DNA from: Patescibacteria group bacterium
Lineage (GTDB): Bacteria > Patescibacteriota > Kazan-3B-28 > UBA10110
DNA: 64,000 nucleotides
NCBI GenBank assembly: GCA_016936175.1
Contig: JAFGPN010000016.1
Coordinates: 1,648-65,647 of the forward strand
Reading direction: 5' to 3'
Numbering within the stretch: position 1 is the stretch's first letter; every line of letters starts with the position of its first letter. The notes beneath the pieces were generated by a model that was not told the origin of the DNA, ran no database searches, and saw nothing but the letters and a program-made list of their open reading frames with translations. Of this stretch, positions 4,406-60,731 are shown piece by piece. The position numbers were made by a program, and so were the translations under genes.

Positions 4406-5389
4406 ATGCCTGAACTCCCCGAAGTAGAAACAGTTGTAAGAGGTCTCTCCCGACACATCGTCGGGCAGAGAGTTAAGCATATCCACATTCCAGCCAAAAA
4501 TAGTTTTAAAGGCACAGCCAAAAAGGCAGAGGGTCTTTCGATAAAAAAGATAACCCGCCGAGGCAAGGGCATTATTATTGAGCTTGCGAAACCCGGCGTA
4601 GCTCGAAAGAGCGAAGACGGATCGAATTCCTTGTCTCTACTCATCCATCTAAAGATGACTGGGCAATTGATATATGTTCCCGCCTCTCGTCATGCTGAAT
4701 TTAGTTCAGCATCTAAAAGCAAGATCCTGAAACGAGTTCAGGATGACGGTAGATTGAACTTTGGCCACCCCACCGATGATTTTACTAACACCATGCCATC
4801 CAAGCACACCCGAGTCATTTTTGAACTAACCCCTACCCGCTTACCCGCTCACTCGCTTACCCGCTCTTCTAACTTTTTGTATTTTAATGACCAGCGCCGG
4901 TTCGGTTGGGTAAAGCTGACCCCAACCAAAGATGTGCCAAAAGATAAGTTCTTCGCAGGATTGGGGCTAGAGCCTCTCGATAAAAAATTCACTCCCACCT
5001 TTTTATACGATGCCATCAAGCGTCGGCCCAAAAGCAACATCAAAGCCATCATCTTAGACCAAACATTGATTACCGGTTTGGGCAATATCTATTCCAACGA
5101 GGCATTATTCTATGCCCGCATCCTTCCTACTCGCCTGGGCAAAACTATCAAAAAGCCGGAGGCCACCAAGCTCCACTCCGCCATCCAAAAGGTGCTACGC
5201 CTCGGCATCAAACACTCCGGCACCAGCATCGCTAACTATCGTAGCGCCGAGGGGGCGCTGGGCAATATGCAGAAATACTTAACTGTGTACGGTCGCAAAG
5301 GCCTCCCCTGCCACGGGTGTAAAGGCACTGTTAAAGCCATCCACCTCAACGGCCGAAGCGCTTACTTCTGCCCCTCCTGTCAAAAATAA
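4406..5389 (+). CDS. mutM: Formamidopyrimidine-DNA glycosylase (Fpg/Nei family) with internal insertions
   Basis: Starts MPELPEVE (catalytic Pro2/Glu3), has H2TH segment GLGNIYSNEALF and C-terminal zinc finger CHGCKGTV...CPSCQK. It is 327 aa against about 270 aa for typical Fpg. Confidence 0.85.
   Translation: MPELPEVETVVRGLSRHIVGQRVKHIHIPAKNSFKGTAKKAEGLSIKKITRRGKGIIIELAKPGVARKSEDGSNSLSLLIHLKMTGQLIYVPASRHAEFSSASKSKILKRVQDDGRLNFGHPTDDFTNTMPSKHTRVIFELTPTRLPAHSLTRSSNFLYFNDQRRFGWVKLTPTKDVPKDKFFAGLGLEPLDKKFTPTFLYDAIKRRPKSNIKAIILDQTLITGLGNIYSNEALFYARILPTRLGKTIKKPEATKLHSAIQKVLRLGIKHSGTSIANYRSAEGALGNMQKYLTVYGRKGLPCHGCKGTVKAIHLNGRSAYFCPSCQK
4689..4747. repeat. GTCAT...ATGAC-bounded double-hairpin element inside the fpg coding sequence
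   Basis: Hairpins ATGCTGAA-tttag-TTCAGCAT (4692-4712) and ATCCTGAA-acgag-TTCAGGAT (4724-4744), bracketed by GTCAT/ATGAC. It translates as ...HAEFSSASKSKILKRVQDDG... Confidence 0.55.
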
Positions 5390-11327: not shown

Positions 11328-11450
11328 TATACCCCGTTAGAAGTCCGACCCGTCTTCTGCCTAATTAACCCTGATTTACTCCCGCGGGAAACGTTTTACC
11401 CACCAATTTGGTAGTTTGAGATTTGTCCGGTAAACTTCTAACGGGGTATA
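11328..11450. repeat. Long-range inverted-repeat (LIR) element, copy 1
   Basis: Perfect 17-bp arms TATACCCCGTTAGAAGT (11328-11344) and ACTTCTAACGGGGTATA (11434-11450) enclosing 89 nt. It lies 30 nt upstream of rpmH. Confidence 0.8.
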
Positions 11451-13399: not shown

Positions 13400-13478
13400 T
13401 CCCGTTTAAAATCACTTATCGGGACAATCTACATTCAGTTTTGGCCGAGTAATTACGCTAAGTCGATTTCTAACGGGA
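13400..13478. repeat. LIR element, degenerate short copy 2
   Basis: Arms TCCCGTTTAAAATC (13400-13413) and GATTTCTAACGGGA (13465-13478) pair at 12 of 14 positions. The last A is the A of the flippase ATG. Confidence 0.45.
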
Positions 13479-18405: not shown

Positions 18406-19513
18406 CGCGCGAATGTTTGGCACCGCTCAGGCGGCCGGTATTGGCCAGTATGCCGAGGAGTTAGTGCGTCATTTGGTTAAGCGCGATACCACTAATCAGT
18501 ATCGTGTTTTTGTCACTGGCGAAGCGGGCAATAATTTTCCTATCTACGCCTCCAATCTAACCAAATCTGTTGTTCCCTTTAAACACTACACCTATAGCGA
18601 GCAGTTTTTGTATCCCAACATACTCAAACAGGCTAATCTTAACCTAATTCATTACACTAACTTTAACTCGCCGATCTTTTTTAAAAAGACCAAAAGCATT
18701 GTTACTATTCACGATCTAACGCTTTGGTTTTTCCCGGGGCGGAAACAGAAAGGGGCAATTAAACAGTTGCTCTATCGGGTGGTAATTCGCCAAGCTTGTC
18801 GCAACGCCCATCACATTATTGCTATTACTGAGGCGACCAAACGGGATATCGTTAAATTACTTAAAATTGATCCGGCTAAGATTACAGTAGTACACGAGGC
18901 CGCTTCGGAGCGGTATCATCCCTTAATTCAGCCAGCCAACTTAGAACAGATTAAGCGCAAATTTAATATTACTAAGCCCTATTTTCTATATATCGGTCAG
19001 TGGCGGGCACATAAAAATGTAGTGCGATTGATTCGGGCGTTTGCCCTACTTCGCCGTCGGTATCAATTAGATTATCAATTAGTGCTGGGGAGTAAGATAG
19101 ATTCTGCGTACCCCGAGATACCAGCTACCATTAAGGAGCTGGGCTTACAAGAAGATGTAGTGTTGACCGGCTACGTTGCTGACGACGAATTGCCTTATCT
19201 TTATAACGGGGCGGAATGCTTTGTATTTCCCTCACTCTATGAAGGATTTGGTCTGCCACCGTTAGAAGCGATGGCCTGTGGCACCCCGGTAGTTTCTTCT
19301 AACGTGTCTTGTATGCCAGAGGTATTGGGCGAGGCGGCCATTTATTTTGATCCCCTAAACGTCGAAGAGATGGCTAAAGCAATGGCTGAAGTGGGTAAAA
19401 ACTACTCGCTCAAGCGAGAGCTTAAAGCTAAGGGGCTTGCCCAGGCCAAGCTCTACTCGTTTGATCGCATGGCCGAAGAGACCCTGGCAGTTTATTGCCA
19501 GGTATTGGGTTAG
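18374..19513 (+). CDS. Glycosyltransferase, GT4 (GT-B) family
   Basis: [24 protein letters not shown] (E-x7-E). Confidence 0.8.
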
Positions 19514-24930: not shown

Positions 24931-25060
24931 CCCCGGTGGGAATTCGAGCAGGTGGCTGGGCCTAGTTTGCCGACCTTCGTGCTGAGGATTGGGTCCGTAA
25001 TTTCTAGTGGGCAAAATCACGCCTACCCAGCCTGGCTAAGGGGTGGGCCGATTCCCGGGG
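24931..25060. other. About 130-nt imperfect long hairpin in the rpsT / DHH-gene divergent intergenic region (unclassified structured element)
   Basis: Nested complementary segments: CCCC..GGGAAT / ATTCCCGGGG, GGCTGGG / CCCAGCC, TTTGCC / GGCAAA, GACC / GGTC. Confidence 0.35.
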
Positions 25061-50790: not shown

Positions 50791-50797
50791 GAGTGAA

Positions 50798-50926
50798 CCC
50801 CATTACAAACTCGTAGTAAAAATAATTCATAGAATTATTTTTACAAATCACTAGCCAATCAGTAACCATATGCGCATCTCTTTATCACTAAATTACCAAA
50901 AGCTGTTTCGTAAGTTTGTAACGGGG
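50798..50926. repeat. LIR element, copy 3 (variant arms)
   Basis: Arms CCCCATTACAAACT (50798-50811) and AGTTTGTAACGGGG (50913-50926) pair at 13 of 14 positions. A perfect 13-bp inner hairpin GTAAAAATAATTC-ata-GAATTATTTTTAC lies inside. The last G is the first base of the comEC GTG. Confidence 0.7.
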
Positions 50927-52413
50927 TGAAACGGGGGCTAACCATTTTGTTATTAGTCAGTTTCATTCTGGGGGTGGCTTCCGGCCCTGTTTTTAGTTGG
51001 CAGAACAGTTTGGTCGCCATCTGGTTAATTGGCGGCCTTGTCTTATTGGCGGCTTTATATCGGCGACGTTACCTTTGGTTTGCGTGGGGATTATTATCAA
51101 TAGCTGTCCTAGTCATCGGTAATCTACGTTTTGGTTTGAGTAATTCCATTAAAGCCGATGATGTTAGTAGTTTGGGTGGCCAAACCGTTGAACTAACTGG
51201 TGTTGTGTCAACAGATCCTCAACCAGGCGCCACAACGACCAAGCTAACTGTTAGTCTGCTAACCGATGCCAATCAGCCTGCTGTTACTGGAAGAATATTA
51301 GTTACCGTTCCTACCCGACCCGATTACGAATATGGCAATCTTGTGCAAATATCCGGTCAAGTTAGTCGACCCATTAATCGAGACGGATTTGATTATGCCG
51401 GTTATCTTGCTCGATTTGGCATCCATGCCACGATGGACTATCCCGTAATTGAGGTCACCGAACCATTTGTAGGCAGTCTATTGCTTCGCGATTTGTATAT
51501 AGTTAAGCATCGCCTGATTAAGGCAGGGCAGAGCGCTTTACCCGAACCCGCCGCTGGGCTACTCTCCGGTTTATTATTTGGGGTAAAAAGCGATCTACCC
51601 GCTTCACTATCGGATAACTTTAACCGAGTCGGGCTAACTCACATCATCGCTCTATCCGGTTTTAACATTACCATCATCGCTACTAGCTTGCTTTGGCTGT
51701 TGCGATTTTTGCCGTTGCGCTGGCGGTTTGGTTTAGCCATGGCTGTAATTCTTTTATTTGTGCTGATGACCGGCGCTTCTCCTTCTGTTACCCGGGCCGC
51801 CATAATGGGCATCTTGGTATTATTAGCTGGCCTGACCGGTCGGTTAGCCGATAGCGGTATCGCCTTATTATTAGCCGCTGTCGCCATGCTACTGGGCAAT
51901 CCTTTAGTGCTGTACTACGATGTCGGTTTTCAATTATCGTTTGTTGCAACGCTCGGCATCATCTATCTTAGCCCCGTGTTCGAGGATATTTTTAAAAAGA
52001 CCCCTCATTGGCTACGTGGCTATCTCTCTCCCACCTTGGCGGCGTTAGTTTTTTCGACCCCGCTGTTGGTTTACCAATTTGAGCGACTATCACTGATCGC
52101 CCCATTGTCTAATTTATTGGCGCTACCGGTGATAGCATTAGCCATGGGGTTGGGTTTTGCCGCCATAGCGGGAAGTTTAATTTACCCACCGATCGGCCTG
52201 GTTATTGGCCTACTGGCCGTCTGGCCTCTTAATTACATTATCGGTGTGGCTAATGTATTGGCCAGCTTGCCAGTAGCATCGATCGCGGTTAAAGTTTCAT
52301 CTGCTTGGTGGGTAGTAATCGCCTATGCCATATTGGGAGTGAGTTTAGCCTTTAGACAAAGTCGTGCGCCAAAAACTGATCTGGAGTTGCATCCTCTTAC
52401 TACTGCTAGCTAA
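50926..52413 (+). CDS. comEC: ComEC/Rec2 DNA internalisation channel, N-terminal plus membrane part
   Basis: DUF4131-like N-terminus and the competence-domain segment GLTHIIALSGFNITII, with many TM helices. It lacks the usual C-terminal MBL domain, which is encoded by the next ORF. Confidence 0.8.
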   Translation: MKRGLTILLLVSFILGVASGPVFSWQNSLVAIWLIGGLVLLAALYRRRYLWFAWGLLSIAVLVIGNLRFGLSNSIKADDVSSLGGQTVELTGVVSTDPQPGATTTKLTVSLLTDANQPAVTGRILVTVPTRPDYEYGNLVQISGQVSRPINRDGFDYAGYLARFGIHATMDYPVIEVTEPFVGSLLLRDLYIVKHRLIKAGQSALPEPAAGLLSGLLFGVKSDLPASLSDNFNRVGLTHIIALSGFNITIIATSLLWLLRFLPLRWRFGLAMAVILLFVLMTGASPSVTRAAIMGILVLLAGLTGRLADSGIALLLAAVAMLLGNPLVLYYDVGFQLSFVATLGIIYLSPVFEDIFKKTPHWLRGYLSPTLAALVFSTPLLVYQFERLSLIAPLSNLLALPVIALAMGLGFAAIAGSLIYPPIGLVIGLLAVWPLNYIIGVANVLASLPVASIAVKVSSAWWVVIAYAILGVSLAFRQSRAPKTDLELHPLTTAS

Positions 52414-53184: not shown

Positions 53185-53496
53185 ATGGACGAACAGAAGA
53201 ATTTTATCCGATGCACCGAAGATTTCACCTGCGAGAACTGTGGGGCTAAGGTGGCAGGCTCCGGCTACACTAACCACTGCCCGAAGTGTTTATATAGTAA
53301 GCATGTCGATAACGTGCCCGGTGACCGAGCCAACCCCTGTGGCGGTCTAATGCCCCCGATCGGTGTTGAGTTGGAGCACGGTGAGTATGTGTTAACCCAC
53401 AAATGTCTCAAGTGTGGGACAGAAAAGCGCAATAAAACCACCGATAACGATAACTTCGATGAGATAGTTAGACTTAATCAAGATTTTCGTGTCTAA
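53185..53496 (+). CDS. RNHCP-domain zinc-ribbon protein
   Basis: CENCGAKV...YTNHCPKCLYSKH...CGG...CLKCG. Confidence 0.7.
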   Translation: MDEQKNFIRCTEDFTCENCGAKVAGSGYTNHCPKCLYSKHVDNVPGDRANPCGGLMPPIGVELEHGEYVLTHKCLKCGTEKRNKTTDNDNFDEIVRLNQDFRV

Positions 53497-54523
53497 TCTG
53501 ATTCCAATTAGTTGGCCTACCTATCTATGGCCATTTAGTGTCGCCCTGATTCTGGGCTATCTCTTAACCTTGGCCATAAAGCTATACGCCGAAAAGCGCA
53601 ATTGGTTTGCCTACTACACCTCGCACCAGACTCACCGGCGCAAGATGGTGCGCCTAGGCGGTGTTGCCATCTATTTAGCCTTTATTATCCCTCTTCTGAT
53701 ATTTATGGATTTAACTCCCCAGTTGACTGGTCTGCTAATCTCGGTTTCTTTAATGTTTTTGATGGGGTTGCTCGACGACATCTACAATTTAAAAGCCTGG
53801 CTTAAAATACTAATCCAGTTATTGGCTATCGGTACGGCTTTAGCATTCGGAATTCGAATTGACCAGATTACTAATCCGTTTGGCGGAGTGATTATCCTAT
53901 CTCCGATCTGGAACTTAGGGTTAACCGCCGTATGGTTGTGGCTAGTTACCAACGCGGTTAATTTGTTAGACGGCTTAGACGGATTAGCGGCCGGGGCTAC
54001 CTCCATCGCGGCAGGCGCCTTGTTTTACTTAAGCCTGTTTGCTTTTGTTAATCAGCCGCAGACCGCCGTATTAGCCATTATCTTATTGGGGACTTCTCTG
54101 GGATTCCTGCGATGGAACTGGTTTCCGGCCAAGATCTTTATGGGCGATTCTGGCAGTTATACGCTTGGTTTCTTGGTGGGGGCCTTAGCTATCATCGGCG
54201 GCGCCAAGTTAGCCACGGCTTCTCTGGTGTTGGGCTTTCCCCTATTAGATGCGGTCTATGCTATTATTCGGCGCCTGCTTCACGGCAAAAATCCATTCTC
54301 AGCCGATCGAGACCACCTTCACCACCGACTTCTGGCCGTGGGCGTCCCCCATATGGGGGTTACGCTGATTATTCTAGGCATCTCAGCGGTTTTTGGAATC
54401 GTTTCGCTGTTGTCTGGAACTTGGGCCAAGTTAATCGCCTTGGCTGTAACCTTGGTAGTAATGATTTTGCTTATCAGGACTATCTTTTTGGTCCAAAGGA
54501 GAAAAGGGAGCTTGCCCCGTTAG
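53489..54523 (+). CDS. Polyprenyl-phosphate N-acetylhexosamine-1-phosphate transferase (MraY/WecA/TagO family)
   Basis: About 10 TM helices, with NAVNLLDGLDGLAAG, FMGDSGS and DRDHLHHRLL. Confidence 0.85.
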   Translation: MSNLIPISWPTYLWPFSVALILGYLLTLAIKLYAEKRNWFAYYTSHQTHRRKMVRLGGVAIYLAFIIPLLIFMDLTPQLTGLLISVSLMFLMGLLDDIYNLKAWLKILIQLLAIGTALAFGIRIDQITNPFGGVIILSPIWNLGLTAVWLWLVTNAVNLLDGLDGLAAGATSIAAGALFYLSLFAFVNQPQTAVLAIILLGTSLGFLRWNWFPAKIFMGDSGSYTLGFLVGALAIIGGAKLATASLVLGFPLLDAVYAIIRRLLHGKNPFSADRDHLHHRLLAVGVPHMGVTLIILGISAVFGIVSLLSGTWAKLIALAVTLVVMILLIRTIFLVQRRKGSLPR

Positions 54524-54624
54524 AAATTCGACAGAGGGTTCGGGGCATGTCAGTTGTTGCCGTGCGGTAGCGCGTTGCTTACAGATATCAATTTTTCTGC
54601 TCTAGCCCTAAATTTCTAATGGGG
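54515..54624. repeat. LIR element, copy 4
   Basis: Arms CCCCGTTAGAAATT (54515-54528) and AATTTCTAATGGGG (54611-54624) pair at 14 of 14 positions, counting one G-T pair. The upstream gene's TAG stop is the TAG of the left arm. Core GCGGTAGCGCGTTGCT lies at 54564-54579. Confidence 0.8.
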
Positions 54625-54634
54625 TCCACAGACT

Positions 54635-55072
54635 ATGATTGACATAATTGTCAATATAGGGTATGATGAGAAAACGAGTCAGCAACCAAAAATAAAACAA
54701 AAAACCATGAATGATCGCCAGTTCGAGAAGCTCGTCCAGAACCTACAGGATGTGATGCGCTGTCCCAACTGCTCGTCCCCCTACTTCTTGGACGATATTC
54801 ATTATCTGGGGCAGATGGATACGATGACCTTTCTGCACCTGCGTTGCCACAAGTGCAGTACCCCGGTATTCGCCAGTGTGGCGGTAGCAGATCAAGAAGG
54901 TGGTTTACTCGAGGCAGAGATCGTTGATGAACAGATTATCAAGCGCCGGAAGCTAGTGGCTGCAGACTCCCCTCTGTTTCGACCAGTAACCCACGACGAT
55001 GTGCTGGACATTCACGATGCCCTATTCAAATCTGGGGATAGTCTGGATCTCTTCTTAAGCCCTGGTCGTTAA
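54635..55072 (+). CDS. Hypothetical zinc-ribbon protein
   Basis: CPNCSSPY...CHKCSTPV. The start could instead be the internal Met at MNDRQFEKL. Confidence 0.5.
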   Translation: MIDIIVNIGYDEKTSQQPKIKQKTMNDRQFEKLVQNLQDVMRCPNCSSPYFLDDIHYLGQMDTMTFLHLRCHKCSTPVFASVAVADQEGGLLEAEIVDEQIIKRRKLVAADSPLFRPVTHDDVLDIHDALFKSGDSLDLFLSPGR

Positions 55073-55841: not shown

Positions 55842-55866
55842 TTCCTGCTAACTAATTTAATAAACA

Positions 55867-55903
55867 ACCTTCGCCGCAAAAATTTGCGGCGAAGGTTTTA
55901 TTT
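55867..55903 (+). terminator. Rho-independent terminator after rplY
   Basis: ACCTTCGCCGC-aaaaattt-GCGGCGAAGGT followed by TTTATTT. Confidence 0.8.
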
Positions 55904-57336: not shown

Positions 57337-57456
57337 AGCTGTTTAAGTTACTTTTCTAATAAATGATTGTTTTATTAGTATATCACAAAAAGCCGCTCCT
57401 GTAAAGCATTTTTTCACACCTACCCCATATGATTTCTAAAATATCAGGTCAGAGCC

Positions 57457-57575
57457 TATACCCCGTTAGAAATTCGGCGATGCTGCTTATCCCACCACTA
57501 AGATTGTCGCGCGGTAGCGCGTTGCTCACTAATGTCTACTTTTCAGCTTTGGTGGTCAATTTCTAACGGGGTATA
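57457..57575. repeat. LIR element, copy 5
   Basis: Perfect 18-bp arms TATACCCCGTTAGAAATT (57457-57474) and AATTTCTAACGGGGTATA (57558-57575). Core GCGGTAGCGCGTTGCT at 57511-57526. It lies 9 nt upstream of the alaS ATG. Confidence 0.85.
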
Positions 57576-57584
57576 CTATAAAAG

Positions 57585-59333
57585 ATGGACTATCGAGAGC
57601 TAAGGCAAAAATTTATTAGTTTTTGGCAGGAGCAGGGTCACGCCCTGGTCCCGTCATCTTCTCTAATCCCCCAACACGACGCCTCGGTGTTGTTGACTAC
57701 CGCCGGGATGCAACAGTTCAAACCTTATTTTACTGGGACGCCTAGCCCGTATGGCGCCAGCGTGGTCAGCATTCAAAAATGTTTTCGGACTGCCGACATC
57801 GACGAGATTGGAGACGATACTCACCTCACCTTCTTTGAAATGCTAGGGCACTTCTCTTTTGGTGATTATTTTAAAGATAAGGCGCTAAAATTAGCCTGGC
57901 AATTTATTACCAGCCCCGATTACCTGGGCATCGACCCAAAGCGAATCTATGCTTCCTATTACAATGGCGACAGACCAAATACAACGGCGGATGATGTCTC
58001 AAAACAGATCTTGGAGTCGTTACCAGGGCTAACTAAGGTAGTCGCTCGAGGCGCGGTGGATAATTTTTGGGGCCCAACCGGAGATGAAGGTCCCTGCGGG
58101 CCAAACGTCGAGTTCTATGTTGATGATGTCGAAATCTGGAACGAGGTATTTAACGAATTTTATTGCCAAGTCGATGGCGCACTAACCCCCCTATCTACGC
58201 CTGGTGTTGATATGGGCGGCGGATTGGAGCGCATCTTAACTGCAGTAACGCCAGAAGCCACCAGTCTTTATGACACAGATGCCTTTGCCCCCATCATTGA
58301 GGCGATTAAGCAACACGCTCCCGGTGTGGGAGAGAACGAGCGATCCCTTAGAATAATATCCGACCATCTGCGCGGTAGCGTATTTTTACTGGGCGACCAT
58401 ATTCAGCCGAGCAACAAAGAACAGGGCTATATTTTGCGTCGTTTGCTTAGGCGAGCCATCTTGCATTTAGATAAATTAGGCGCTGTCGCTGGTTTCGAAG
58501 AAATTATCACTACGATTATTAACCAGTATGGCGAATTTTATCCCGAGTTGCTTAAGGAACAAAAGATGATTTTGCAGTTAGCCGCTCTTGAGCGAGACAA
58601 GTTTCTTAAGACTATTGCCGATGGCCAGAAAGAACTGGCCAAGATATTAAACAAGGTCGGGTCGGTGGTAGACGGCGAAGTAGCATTTAGTTTATTCTCC
58701 ACTTATGGCTTGCCTCTCGATTTTGTTAAAGAAGAAGCCCAGCGGTTAAATAAATCGATCGACCTACCGGCTTACGATCAGGCGTTTGCCAAACATCAAG
58801 AGGTTTCTCGGGCGGGGGTAGAGAGCAAATTCGGTGGACACGGCCTAGCCTCCGGCGCGGTTGTTAGCGAAGCCGATAAACAGATAATTACCCGAATGCA
58901 TACCGCTACTCATCTGTTGCATGCGGCTTTAATAAAGTTTTTGGGGCCCGAAGTTAAGCAGGGCGGATCGGATTTAACCACGGAACGAATCCGTTTTGAT
59001 TTTACCTTTTCGCGTGGGATGACGACCGAAGAAAAACAGCAGGTAGAAGATTGGGTTAACGCCCGAATCAAGCAAAACCTAAAAGTTTTGCGCGAGGAGA
59101 AGCCGATTAAAGATGCCTTAGCCGAAGGGGCGCTATCTTTCTTTAAAGAAAAATATCCAGATATCGTTAGCGTCTACACTATATATAATGAAAGTACTGG
59201 CGAGGTGGTCAGCAAGGAACTCTGCGGCGGCCCGCACATAGAGCATACGGGAGAGATTGGAGCATTTCACATTACCAAAGAACAGAGTAGCTCCGCTGGG
59301 GTTCGTCGAATTCGTGCAACAATCGGGAAATAA
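57585..59333 (+). CDS. alaS: Alanine--tRNA ligase, compact form lacking the C-Ala domain
   Basis: Catalytic N-terminus FISFWQEQGHALVPSSSLIP..D.S.LLTTAGMQQFKPYF, plus FFEMLGHFSFGDYFK. Editing-core motifs HTATHLLHAAL and CGGPH. Ends just after GVRRIRATIGK at 582 aa. Confidence 0.88.
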   Translation: MDYRELRQKFISFWQEQGHALVPSSSLIPQHDASVLLTTAGMQQFKPYFTGTPSPYGASVVSIQKCFRTADIDEIGDDTHLTFFEMLGHFSFGDYFKDKALKLAWQFITSPDYLGIDPKRIYASYYNGDRPNTTADDVSKQILESLPGLTKVVARGAVDNFWGPTGDEGPCGPNVEFYVDDVEIWNEVFNEFYCQVDGALTPLSTPGVDMGGGLERILTAVTPEATSLYDTDAFAPIIEAIKQHAPGVGENERSLRIISDHLRGSVFLLGDHIQPSNKEQGYILRRLLRRAILHLDKLGAVAGFEEIITTIINQYGEFYPELLKEQKMILQLAALERDKFLKTIADGQKELAKILNKVGSVVDGEVAFSLFSTYGLPLDFVKEEAQRLNKSIDLPAYDQAFAKHQEVSRAGVESKFGGHGLASGAVVSEADKQIITRMHTATHLLHAALIKFLGPEVKQGGSDLTTERIRFDFTFSRGMTTEEKQQVEDWVNARIKQNLKVLREEKPIKDALAEGALSFFKEKYPDIVSVYTIYNESTGEVVSKELCGGPHIEHTGEIGAFHITKEQSSSAGVRRIRATIGK

Positions 59334-60601: not shown

Positions 60602-60731
60602 CCCCGTTAGAAGCCTGCTATTAGCTCAATGCAATATTTAACTAAAAATACTAACCATGTTTAAATCTCATATACTACTAACTGCGTGCAAAAAGGCTAA
60701 AGTATTTTTGCGCCGAGGGCTTCTAACAGGG
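60602..60731. repeat. LIR element, copy 6
   Basis: Arms CCCCGTTAGAAGCC (60602-60615) and GGCTTCTAACAGGG (60718-60731) pair at 13 of 14 positions. AT-rich interior with hairpin GCAAAAA...TTTTTGC. The last G is the first base of the downstream GTG. Confidence 0.75.

Follow-up and report, generated by a model that had tools for sequence, protein, structure and literature searches.

Here we report that the segments at 54515-54624 and 57457-57575 of a 64,000-nucleotide stretch of DNA from a Patescibacteria group bacterium (contig JAFGPN010000016.1; hereafter the window) probably both belong to one sub-family of a non-autonomous, MITE-type mobile DNA element and do not constitute a small-RNA gene. 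We put the probability of this reading at roughly 0.7; it is drawn from sequence comparison, and takes longer relatives that carry a nuclease gene to be the likely autonomous form. A preliminary description of the same DNA had interpreted the two segments as a transcribed RNA structure, and had overlooked the signs of mobility, namely target-site duplications and empty sites in relatives.

Anatomy of the two copies

The two copies lie at the 3' end of a glycosyltransferase gene (site A) and upstream of the gene for alanine-tRNA ligase (site B). These features, together with the other members of the same family in the window, are as follows.

11332-11446, no strand assigned: member of another sub-family, 5' of an L34-like gene, with the target duplication TATA (11328-11331 and 11447-11450)
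50798-50926, no strand assigned: family member between YceG and ComEC, with the target duplication TGAA (50794-50797 and 50927-50930)
53489-54523, plus strand: glycosyltransferase family 4 gene (Glycos_transf_4), the last three codons and stop of which (TTG CCC CGT TAG) are made of flank and left arm
54515-54624, plus strand: site A element, core sub-family, at the 3' end of the glycosyltransferase gene; no clean target duplication, flanks CTTG and TCCA
54515-54528, plus strand: left terminal inverted repeat of site A, CCCCGTTAGAAATT, complementary to the right arm at 13 of 14 positions
54561-54579, plus strand: core of site A, the hairpin CGTGC-GGTA-GCGCG (54561-54574) followed by TTGCT
54611-54624, plus strand: right terminal inverted repeat of site A, AATTTCTAATGGGG, with one C-to-T change from the family consensus
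54639-54667, plus strand: promoter-like site of the next gene, TTGACA-17-TATGAT, 15 nt past the site A element
57457-57460, no strand assigned: left copy of the site B target-site duplication, TATA, as compared with the empty sites in L147 and L149
57461-57571, plus strand: site B element, core sub-family, within the TATA of a TATACT box, 7 nt 5' of the AlaRS start codon
57508-57526, plus strand: core of site B, the hairpin CGCGC-GGTA-GCGCG (57508-57521) followed by TTGCT
57572-57575, no strand assigned: right copy of the site B duplication, TATA, which with the next two bases, CT, reads TATACT
57585-59333, plus strand: alanine-tRNA ligase (AlaRS) gene, downstream of the site B element
60602-60731, no strand assigned: family member that separates FtsA from the next gene; the GTG start at 60731 consists of the final G of its right arm and a TG

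The anatomy given in the preliminary description holds, apart from one boundary. The arms (CCCCGTTAGAAATTCG/AATTTCTAAYGGGG) and an exact 16-nt core are common to both copies, and TTCG directly follows the left arm in each. The core 16-mer, GCGGTAGCGCGTTGCT, has exactly two exact matches in the window (54564-54579 and 57511-57526), both on the plus strand; with up to three mismatches allowed, shuffled sequence gives a mean of 0.5 matches. Around the loop GGTA it forms a 5-bp hairpin, CGTGC/GCGCG at site A and CGCGC/GCGCG at site B, and the additional helix proposed for the 57457 copy (CCACCACUAAG/CUUUGGUGG) is present in its minimum-free-energy fold. The open reading frame at 53489-54523 does end on the TAG of the left arm (54521-54523). 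The boundaries of the 57457 copy need revision: its arms stand, as part of an 18-nt perfect inverted repeat (TATACCCCGTTAGAAATT/AATTTCTAACGGGGTATA), but the outer TATA that had been counted into them is on each side a 4-bp target-site duplication. Both copies are short (110-119 nt) and without an open reading frame of their own. Because four further copies in three other genomes repeat the same arms, core and geometry, the pattern shared by sites A and B is beyond chance.

A family of elements inserted at gene boundaries

The ends of the family are terminal inverted repeats of 11-14 bp, CCCCGTTAGAA... and ...TTCTAACGGGG, and five copies in the window possess them. When 596 Gb of genomes were scanned for CCCCGTTAGAA-N82-112-TTCTAACGGGG, matches were obtained at no fewer than 119 genome loci, as compared with an estimated chance expectation of about one match (596 Gb x 31 gap lengths / 4^22), and the hosts include CPR/Patescibacteria, Omnitrophota, Desulfobacterota, Planctomycetota and others. 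Elements measure from 26 to about 135 nt including the arms, with an arbitrary interior that ranges from a few nucleotides to about 110 nt. The four bases flanking the element on either side are identical in 90 of 147 copies, whereas the four bases beyond them agree in 3 of 147; in the flank, T stands at position -4 in 118 and A at position -1 in 124 of the 147 copies, and the target duplication has the form T-N-N-A. Minimal units of 26-34 nt likewise bear target duplications, whereas two of the five window copies, that at 54515 included, are without a clean one.

The host is a bacterium of a Kazan-like lineage of the Patescibacteria; a cyanobacterial origin was considered and rejected, as HIP1 sites are absent. 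Sites without an element are preserved in relatives of the host, of which L147-L154 stem from a groundwater series. Syntenic relatives with 81-83% AlaRS identity lack all four of the comparable window elements, and the empty sites carry a single copy of the duplicated sequence, both at site B, where L147 and L149 read AAC-TATA-CTATAAAAGATG and the window reads TATA-element-TATA, and between YceG and ComEC, where the site of the 50798-50926 element is empty in L149 and L151 and reads CTGTAG-TGAA-AAGG. The empty-site junctions fit a 4-bp duplication at three elements (TATA, TGAA, and A/TGAA becoming G/TGAA). Site A is empty in L147, L149 and L155 and occupied by a same-site copy in L151 (6974-7083), while the 60602-60731 site is empty in L147, L149, L151 and L154 and occupied in L153 (5887-6017). 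L149 and L151 encode neighbouring proteins that are about 95% identical, and yet both core copies are present in one and absent from the other; AlaRS of L151 shares 76% identity with that of L149, as against 94-95% for the genes nearby. L153 has a different element at the TATA of site B and another inside the AlaRS start codon. On the tree, this pattern of presence and absence requires either repeated precise loss, repeated insertion at the same site, or recombination between lineages.

The sites hit by insertions are stop codons, start codons and -10 boxes. In the window the neighbours are YceG, ComEC, the glycosyltransferase, L25, AlaRS and FtsA, which lie 3-4 kb apart and in an order that is syntenic in the relatives; across the family, the genes that recur next to elements are housekeeping genes only. 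A cluster of UvrA genes that had appeared enriched beside elements turned out to consist of generic ABC ATPases. At gene boundaries insertions can persist since the element has ends that leave gene signals intact. The left arm supplies an in-frame TAG (CCC CGT TAG), the right arm supplies TAA or TGA in two frames, and a GTG start codon is restored where the last G of the right arm meets a duplicated TGAA or TGGA, as at ComEC, where the start at 50926 is the last G of the 50798-50926 element plus TG. On 13 element sides the stop codon of the upstream gene is a TGA or TAA of the flank and on 15 sides, in other loci, it is the TAG of the arm; in genomes with an empty site A, the TGA stop of the glycosyltransferase falls within the TTGACA of the promoter-like site beyond. 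Open reading frames of at least 100 codons start at the rebuilt GTG on 22 of 49 TGAA-flanked sides, with 0 and 2 in the other two frames, and ATGAA is kept upstream of the element in most of 32 cases of a rebuilt GTG. If our reading is right, the ends have been shaped to keep stop codons, start codons and operon junctions usable, which would explain how a parasite persists inside essential housekeeping operons.

These properties invite comparison with the Correia elements of Neisseria and the ERIC and YPAL elements of Enterobacteria. Like the present family, these MITEs are short, non-coding, multi-copy and able to fold back, have terminal inverted repeats and a short target duplication, lie at gene boundaries and are co-transcribed with neighbouring genes. 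However, the duplication in the present family is one of 4 bp (T-N-N-A) and not TA, its 11-nt ends span many phyla and not one genus or family, its interiors are unrelated between sub-families, whole elements shrink to 26-34 nt, its ends systematically rebuild stop and start codons, and its apparent autonomous partner encodes a GIY-YIG nuclease and not a DDE transposase. The palindromic elements of Rickettsia (RPEs) are alike in being palindromic mini-elements that are tolerated in or near essential genes and have a sequence that keeps reading frames usable. They differ in lying in frame within coding sequence and in one genus, whereas the elements described here occupy start and stop codons, for which they provide replacements, and combine a clear target duplication with a candidate nuclease.

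The core hairpin

The hairpin CGCGC-GNNA-GCGCG-TTGCT marks a rare sub-family and is under purifying selection. It is found in six copies in four genomes, always between arms, and these six represent only about three independent insertion sites. The sub-family with conserved modules that had been proposed is borne out, the modules being the arms, the central hairpin with TTGCT, and a right-hand block TTTTC.GCT.T.G. Nor does the core occur as a common repeat independent of the arms: within 1.34 Mb of sequence, all matches that keep the 5' stem lie between arms. No match to a 22-mer of the core was found in the 596 Gb of genomes, and 16 matches to the core 16-mer in viral contigs were attributed to chance, as they lie inside genes and without arms. 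An arm-anchored core pattern matched only the Kazan copy in JGI metagenomes; this pattern misses the L151 copy because its loop and arm differ. Among the six copies the loop varies (GGTA in four, GGAA and GATA in one each) and the stem is kept apart from one-sided wobble changes. In same-site copies the left linker is randomised while core and arms are unchanged, and conservation is far stronger in the right half than in the left. The survival of core and arms beside a left linker that can no longer be recognised is explained by a host function, that of an RNA or of a DNA site, no less well than by a need in mobility.

What, then, does the core do? Our best guess is a cis-acting site of the element, structural or bound by a protein, at the tip of the fold-back, and not a free-standing RNA. 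Alternatively, the core and right half may form a DNA regulatory module that the host requires, for instance an outward promoter with an upstream factor-binding palindrome CGCGC-N4-GCGCG, comparable to the promoters and the IHF site of Correia elements; we regard this as unlikely, although it fares best among the alternatives. A regulatory role would suit the position of the site B element, which separates the -10 box of AlaRS from its upstream region, and the occurrence of TTGGTG or CTGGTG exactly 17 nt 5' of the rebuilt TATACT in three same-site copies. The strong conservation of the right half, the combination of fixed half-sites with a variable loop or spacer, which would suit a dimeric DNA-binding protein, and the promoter TTGTCC-18-TATACT predicted at the right end of the 11332-11446 copy point in the same direction. 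MITEs are documented as carriers of promoters, of factor-binding sites, those for IHF among them, and of RNase sites (PMC10969869). However, TTGGTG-17-TATACT falls below the threshold of the promoter scan, no candidate binding protein is known, and the site A and Kazan copies need no promoter from the element, because they have strong predicted promoters of their own downstream of it. The function of the core can be tested, as filled and empty alleles are known for the same sites.

The RNA reading holds that the sub-family encodes a structured RNA on the plus strand, be it a small RNA or a leader or trailer that regulates in cis, in which the arms are the closing stem and the core is an internal hairpin with a GNNA-type loop. 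We consider it somewhat less probable still. Transcription of the plus strand at site A must extend at least into the left arm, where the glycosyltransferase has its stop codon, and a promoter-like site (57413-57442) lies just 5' of the site B copy. All six core copies are oriented toward the downstream gene, the plus-strand fold is no less stable than the minus-strand fold in each of the six, core changes are limited to the loop or to one wobble pair, and all three stem substitutions are C-to-T on the plus strand and give G.U pairs there. It was from such a change, between sites A and B, that a transcribed, plus-strand-specific structure had originally been argued. That claim is unsupported by the wider comparison, because the loop varies, the stem shows no compensatory change, and wobble pairs across the family show no bias for the transcribed strand. 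None of 19 pairs in the six-copy alignment is compensatory, in a comparison of low power, and the only stem changes are the three one-sided C-to-T substitutions, which on the coding strand are also the expected direction of mutational skew. Among 161 family members, transition mismatches in the terminal stem number 12 G.U against 17 A.C on the sense strand, a negative outcome for wobble across the family. Composition-controlled folding z-scores favour the plus strand in only two of the six copies, interior folds are inconsistent from copy to copy, the Kazan copy sits between two predicted divergent promoters, and the small number of independent insertion sites also weighs against an RNA. A search of Rfam 15 at gathering score returned only tRNAs in the window and 19 loci, with nothing overlapping the elements even at E values up to 5. 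A helix between TTGCT and GCAA was considered as the reason for the invariance of TTGCT and rejected; it forms only in site B copies and therefore leaves that invariance unexplained.

Long forms with a GIY-YIG nuclease gene

Some members are longer, at about 280 bp. Their arms and their duplication are the same, and they contain a single gene, which encodes a GIY-YIG (UPF0213-like) nuclease of 86-93 aa. In L041 (6221-6502), L022 (6919-7199), L160 and L174 the arms enclose this gene exactly, and the elements sit at ATGA overlaps of genes, with TGAA duplicated. Both ends of the gene are encoded by the arms: the first codons read N-P-V-R-S/N and the stop is that of TTC TAA, while the ATG is taken from the host gene that the element interrupts. 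The nuclease has 956 homologous clusters, and among the best 120 of these the arm-coded N-terminus is found in 74 and the arm-coded C-terminus in 90. The family matches PF01541 and the UPF0213 structure PDB 1ZG2 (profile match E = 5.5e-7) and, weakly, the group I intron endonuclease family, and the residues that are invariant in its alignment are typical of the GIY-YIG fold. The gene is absent from the window and from about 200 kb of relatives' loci, and a DNA pattern search of viral contigs found no further nuclease-bearing elements. It is patchy among close relatives and has been reported as horizontally transferred from Patescibacteria (PMC12455944). A literature search, with most subscription journals outside its coverage, found no description of either the arms or an inverted-repeat GIY-YIG element.

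From this association we infer that the long members may be the autonomous form, with a nuclease that acts in trans on copies without the gene. More tentatively, and at somewhat less than even odds, the arms would be the ends of a previously undescribed class of ultra-small (about 280 bp) autonomous elements, the sole gene of which is the 86-93 aa nuclease. According to this model, the element would insert with a 4-bp duplication into T-N-N-A, chiefly the TGAA of ATGA or ATGAA gene junctions. To be expressed, the nuclease gene would use the ribosome-binding site as well as the ATG of the host gene into which the element has inserted, and the host gene would in turn receive the rebuilt GTG, or an in-frame ATG in the right end of the element, beside the nuclease stop codon. 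Derivatives without the gene, both core copies of the window included, would be mobilised in trans and so have spread over many uncultivated phyla, with the CGCGC-GNNA-GCGCG hairpin serving as a cis site specific to its sub-family. Few self-contained mobile elements would be smaller than such an autonomous form, which would rely on a bare GIY-YIG nuclease, and one mini-transposon family would be shared by the small, streamlined genomes of the CPR and several other uncultivated phyla. To our knowledge, GIY-YIG enzymes act as nucleases and not as strand transferases, homing endonucleases do not leave a 4-bp duplication, and no inverted-repeat elements with target duplications are attributed to this enzyme class.

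The encoded PF01541 domain is what the long form shares with genes for homing endonucleases of the I-TevI type and with stand-alone UPF0213/YhbQ-like proteins (PDB 1ZG2). Homing endonuclease genes, however, are without terminal inverted repeats or target duplication and encode a separate DNA-binding domain, whereas here a bare catalytic domain of about 90 aa is bracketed by inverted repeats and accompanied by derivatives without the gene. The two window copies are themselves not genes of this kind, as they have no open reading frame and the domain is found only in their long relatives in other genomes. Whether the core or the right block might be a relic of the nuclease gene was also considered. 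TTTTTCGGCTCTGG agrees at 11 of 14 positions with TTTTTCGCCCATGG, the 3' end of that gene, but the register is shifted, and no nuclease-bearing element in the 1.34 Mb of sequence contains the core; such a descent is unproven.

A different enzyme would be at work if the elements were ordinary MITEs moved by a DDE transposase of the IS1380/piggyBac kind, with the GIY-YIG gene a mere passenger or frequent resident between the arms, and to this we assign a lower probability than to either the DNA module or the RNA. The ISfinder signature of IS1380 is ends that begin with CC and a duplication of 4-5 bp. The present family has both, ends beginning CC and a 4-bp duplication, along with a similar terminal flavour (CC..TAGA), and the ends of piggyBac, CCCTAGAAAG, together with its 4-bp duplication of TTAA, are similar to CCCCGTTAGAAAG and T-N-N-A. 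Among prokaryotes, piggyBac has its relative in IS1380 (PMC10813416). That the arms can also enclose other cargo, in the form of tRNA genes in L039 and L116, is consistent with a passenger gene. Nonetheless, searches of about 0.9-1.1 Mb of element-bearing loci, by phmmer with ISEcp1 and with a four-member HMM (ISEcp1, IS1247, IS1678 and ISPme1), brought up no IS1380-like protein, the only match being an AAA ATPase that is a false positive. Arm pairs 150-4000 bp apart with a matching duplication enclosed no transposase and yielded only neighbouring elements and the 282-nt element of L041; the sampled IS1380 ends (CCTAGATTCTACG, CCTGAATAATTCATAC and CCCACATTTCCCAAG) are not close to the arms. 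Finally, the start and stop of the nuclease reading frame are built into the arms across dozens of divergent homologues, and the nuclease is therefore unlike a passenger gene. An HTH protein encoded in L151 was considered as a transposase and found not to be one.

That the hairpins are non-mobile inverted repeats, such as integron attC sites, REP/REPIN elements or intrinsic terminators, has next to no probability: GTTAGAA and TTCTAAC do fit six of seven positions of the attC core sites GTTRRRY and RYYYAAC, the size of 26-135 nt and the variable interior of these imperfect palindromes, conserved only at their ends, are attC-like, and like REPs and terminators the elements are intergenic hairpins, but the order of the motifs is inverted (5'-GTTAGAA ... 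TTCTAAC-3' as against 5'-RYYYAAC...GTTRRRY-3' in attC), there are no cassette arrays and no integrase context but housekeeping neighbours in both orientations, 4-bp duplications and empty sites are properties of neither attC nor REP elements, no run of T follows the hairpins 3' and a terminator scan calls neither the core nor the whole element, and gene contexts are more often divergent (22) than convergent (11). REP and REPIN elements, moreover, are species-specific hairpins without target duplication that are associated with a Y1 RAYT gene, whereas the ends described here have a 4-bp duplication and cross phyla.

Recognition of the elements would correct many annotations and assembly breaks, since gene callers already take arm-coded residues into proteins, as M-N-P-V-R-S N-termini, an L-P-R-stop C-terminus and M-T-S-N-G-V extensions.

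Insertions of a small mobile element family

Site A, at the 3' end of a glycosyltransferase gene, and site B, upstream of AlaRS, are two of five elements in the window that share the same terminal inverted repeats (arms):

11332-11446, element with an unrelated interior
50798-50926, element with an unrelated interior
54515-54624, site A, bounded by CCCCGTTAGAAATT and AATTTCTAATGGGG
57457-57575, site B, bounded by a perfect inverted repeat of 18 nt
60602-60731, element with an unrelated interior

The structural details in the preliminary description were borne out. In both copies TTCG directly follows the left arm, and the 16-mer GCGGTAGCGCGTTGCT, found at just two places in the window, each on the plus strand, lies within a 5-bp hairpin with loop GGTA (stem CGTGC/GCGCG at site A and CGCGC/GCGCG at site B). 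The TAG of the left arm at site A is the stop codon of the ORF at 53489-54523, which encodes a family-4 glycosyltransferase. Degenerate arm-like sequences are also present, as a 51-nt pair with two mismatches per arm (19257-19307), an 82-nt pair with three mismatches per arm (24931-25012) and one solitary arm (13465-13478); these are possibly decayed or truncated family members.

Close homologues of the window's AlaRS occur in other metagenomes, on contigs that keep the gene order of the window, and the empty-site junctions found there identify the elements as insertions.

Table. Empty sites on relatives' contigs and the corresponding sites of the window
AlaRS upstream: empty in L147 and L149, GACGAAC-TATA-CTATAAAAGATGG; window, TATA-element-TATACTATAAAAGATGG
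YceG/ComEC: empty in L149 and L151, CTGTAG-TGAA-AAGG; window, TGAA-element-TGAAACGG
FtsA/next gene: empty in L147, L149 and L151, GTGTAA(A)TGAA; window, element-TGAAAAAACGC
Glycosyltransferase 3' end: empty in L147, L149 and L155, stop TGA inside the -35 box TTGACA of the next promoter; window, as L151, protein ends L-P-R-stop via the arm

Elements are distributed patchily over the tree. Neighbouring proteins of L149 and L151 share about 95% identity, yet of these two only L151 has both copies with the central hairpin (core) typical of sites A and B; the core copies of the window are likewise absent from its relative L147. L153 has a different element at the same TATA as site B and another inside the AlaRS start codon, where A|TGGA has become ...GGGG|TGGA and the start is now GTG. 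This close relative of the window organism has three family elements within 500 bp upstream of AlaRS (2385-2870), namely one with a TTTA duplication, one of another sub-family at the site B TATA and the one in the start codon.

Scanned over one genome per species, the pattern CCCCGTTAGAA-N82-112-TTCTAACGGGG returned at least 119 loci, against an estimated chance expectation of about one match (596 Gb x 31 gap lengths / 4^22); this and the other counts from genome and metagenome scans are lower bounds. The matches listed include Patescibacteria/CPR lineages, Omnitrophota, Syntrophaceae and other 'Deltaproteobacteria', Planctomycetota, Nitrospirae, Bdellovibrionales and others, with all taxonomic labels coming from metagenome-assembled genomes. 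Interiors are extremely diverse, and the shortest elements measure 26-34 nt. Identical 4-bp flanks were found in 90 of 147 copies, compared with 3 of 147 for the four bases lying beyond them, and these flanks have the form T-N-N-A (TAAA/TTTA, n=28; TGAA/TTCA, n=28; TCAA/TTGA, n=9), which together mark the 4 bp as a target-site duplication.

Several individual loci depart from the simple arrangement. Two identical 130-nt copies in L025 (543-672 and 1247-1376), 574 nt apart and each flanked by TAAA, may have arisen by local duplication or may form a composite arrangement. In L039 (tRNA-Ala(CGC), 5074-5147, within 5057-5166) and L116 (tRNA-Ser(CGA), 1624-1711, within 1610-1723, its acceptor stem abutted by the arms) an arm pair encloses a complete tRNA gene, which may be cargo, reflect two arms paired by chance or point to a processing role. 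A large CPR sub-family (L005, L021, L041 5618-5748, L049, L063, L083 and others) has an internal A/T-rich hairpin adjoining the left arm, the sides of which, judged by eye, covary between copies (CAGAAAAA/TTTTTCTG, CATAAAA/TTTTATG, CAAAAGATTTTA/TAAAATCTTTTG).

The copies at sites A and B fit the structural definition of a MITE, and they failed the tests for an attC site, a REP element, a terminator and an Rfam family, no Rfam family matching the elements. Rickettsia palindromic elements are one analogue. Nearest in function are the Correia and ERIC elements, known to carry promoters, factor sites and, in mRNAs, RNase-sensitive hairpins (PMC10969869). Unlike known MITEs, the present family has ends that are identical across phyla and that preserve stop and start codons, a 4-bp T-N-N-A duplication, and a candidate autonomous partner encoding only a bare GIY-YIG domain. 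We found no description of such an element in the literature, of which our coverage is incomplete, and an earlier description is possible.

Codons supplied by the arms and a nuclease-bearing long form

For long ORFs running into elements, the stop codon lies in the flank (TGA or TAA) on 13 sides and in the arm (TAG, read as CCC CGT TAG) on 15. Where the outward flank is TGAA, an ORF of at least 100 codons starts at a rebuilt GTG, made of the arm's terminal G and the flank's TG, on 22 of 49 sides (0 and 2 in the other two frames), and in most of 32 rebuilt-GTG cases the original start codon is retained on the far side as ATGAA. The right arm offers TAA in one frame and, together with the duplication, TGA in another, both adjoining the rebuilt GTG. 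From these sequence features we infer that T-N-N-A insertions survive mainly where such codons leave both neighbouring genes intact, and that translation of the downstream gene would be coupled to whatever reads into the element.

Two gene starts in the window merit mention. TATACT is followed after 7 nt by the AlaRS ATG with no visible Shine-Dalgarno sequence (57572-57587), an arrangement kept in L147, L149, L151 and L154 that suggests a leaderless mRNA. The ORF listed as 54635-55072 begins within a promoter-like site (54639-54667); its true start is probably the ATG at 54708 (ATGAATGATCGCCAG...), aligned with syntenic gene starts in relatives.

A 282-nt element in L041, with arms CCCCGTTAGAAGTC / GACTTCTAACGGGG and a TGAA duplication, is filled by a single ORF for a 93-aa GIY-YIG protein. 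The flank contributes the ATG of this ORF (ATGAA), the left arm residues 2-6 (N-P-V-R-S) and the right arm the final codon with the stop (TTC TAA); the layout is the same in L022 (Omnitrophota), where the protein is divergent. The protein has 956 homologous clusters with PF01541, and among the best 120 of these the arm-coded N-terminal motif is present in 74 and the arm-coded C-terminus in 90, while 33 start at an internal Met. Two more nuclease-bearing elements, both with TGAA duplications, lie at ATGA overlaps (antitoxin/RelE-like toxin and hisF/hisH). In both, the nuclease uses the host ATG, and the new start of the host gene is either the rebuilt GTG or an ATG lying in frame in the right end of the element. 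Searches with the nuclease profile hit the solved UPF0213 protein 1ZG2 and gave a weak match to the group I intron endonuclease family. No IS1380-like protein was found in the element loci and no conventional transposase between long arm pairs, and the recurrent neighbouring genes are all housekeeping. The nuclease-bearing forms of about 280 bp may be the autonomous members of the family. GIY-YIG proteins are listed among genes transferred out of Patescibacteria (PMC12455944).

Related GIY-YIG genes in L110 (7125-7448) and L173 (562-792) lack the CCCCGTTAGAA arms and are flanked by direct repeats resembling tRNA gene fragments, with tRNA-Met at L110 7068-7139, suggesting that the same nuclease family has a second insertion mode. 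A nuclease-bearing element on the viral contig L170 (about 1450-1765) has the variant arms CCCCGTAGGATTT / AAATCCAACGGGG, and the range of end sequences is therefore broader than the search pattern.

The core sub-family and its likely role

The core sub-family is known from six distinct copies at about three independent sites.

Table. Copies of the core sub-family
Window site A: 3' end of glycosyltransferase gene; loop GGTA
Window site B: upstream of AlaRS; loop GGTA
L151 site A: same site as window A; loop GGAA
L151 site B: same site as window B; loop GGTA
L154 site B: same site as window B; loop GATA
Kazan MAG copy (L016, same DNA as L137): between rpsT and a DHH-family gene; loop GGTA

All six share the arms and CG(C/T)GCG..AGCGCGTTGCT. 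Linkers of 33-35 nt on the left and 36-38 nt on the right, near-equal within each copy, separate the core from the arms; the left linker is unrelated even among copies at the same site, and a right-hand block TTTTC.GCT.T.G is common to the five non-Kazan copies. The modular conservation proposed for this sub-family is real, and the core is not separate from the arms, every match that keeps the 5' stem falling between arms in the 1.34 Mb searched. The window and the Kazan lineage share only 54% identity in AlaRS, so that the core has persisted, or was transferred, across a large evolutionary distance.

This modular conservation implies constraint. Recombination between elements might also produce it, as might lateral spread with flanking DNA, which fits the state of AlaRS in L151 (10001-11752): it is only 76% identical to that of its sister L149 (10001-11755), compared with 94-95% for neighbouring proteins. 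The divergent AlaRS begins right after the site B element, which is present in L151 and not in L149, and looks like a recombination or co-conversion tract.

Within the core only the central two bases of the loop and a single wobble pair vary, the stem and TTGCT are invariant, and the hairpin is positioned midway between the arms, a combination that fits an apical hairpin or a cis-acting palindromic protein-binding site. Such a site could serve the element's own propagation or help the host to express the adjoining gene. The site B element parts the -10 box TATACT from its former upstream region and provides TTGGTG or CTGGTG at 17-nt spacing in all three same-site copies. Our ranking, of modest confidence throughout, puts a cis-acting element site ahead of a host regulatory module and places an RNA last.

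The evidence does not support a plus-strand-specific structured RNA, the reading of the two copies in the preliminary description, though such an RNA is possible. Transcription must extend at least into the left arm of the site A copy, a promoter-like site lies upstream of the site B copy and all six copies are oriented toward the downstream gene, although the Kazan copy is flanked by two predicted divergent promoters (promoter and terminator calls being consensus matches only). The three stem substitutions are all C-to-T on the plus strand, but this is also the direction expected from mutational skew on the coding strand. By raw folding energy the plus strand is preferred or at least not at a disadvantage, whereas z-scores against composition-preserving shuffles favour it in only two of six copies. 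Interiors fold differently from copy to copy, none of 19 pairs has a compensatory change, and terminal-stem transition mismatches on the sense strand (161 family members, co-directional genes) show no bias toward G.U, with 12 G.U against 17 A.C.

Two other repeats were noted in the window. Just past the L25 gene, a perfect 15-bp palindrome AACCTTCGCCGCAAA/TTTGCGGCGAAGGTT (55866-55897) has a T-rich tail on each strand and gives a terminator call in both directions. At 1883-1923 a 3-nt spacer separates the halves of a homopyrimidine/homopurine inverted repeat, CCCCTCTTCTCCCCCCCTT / AAGGGGGGGATGGGGGGGG.
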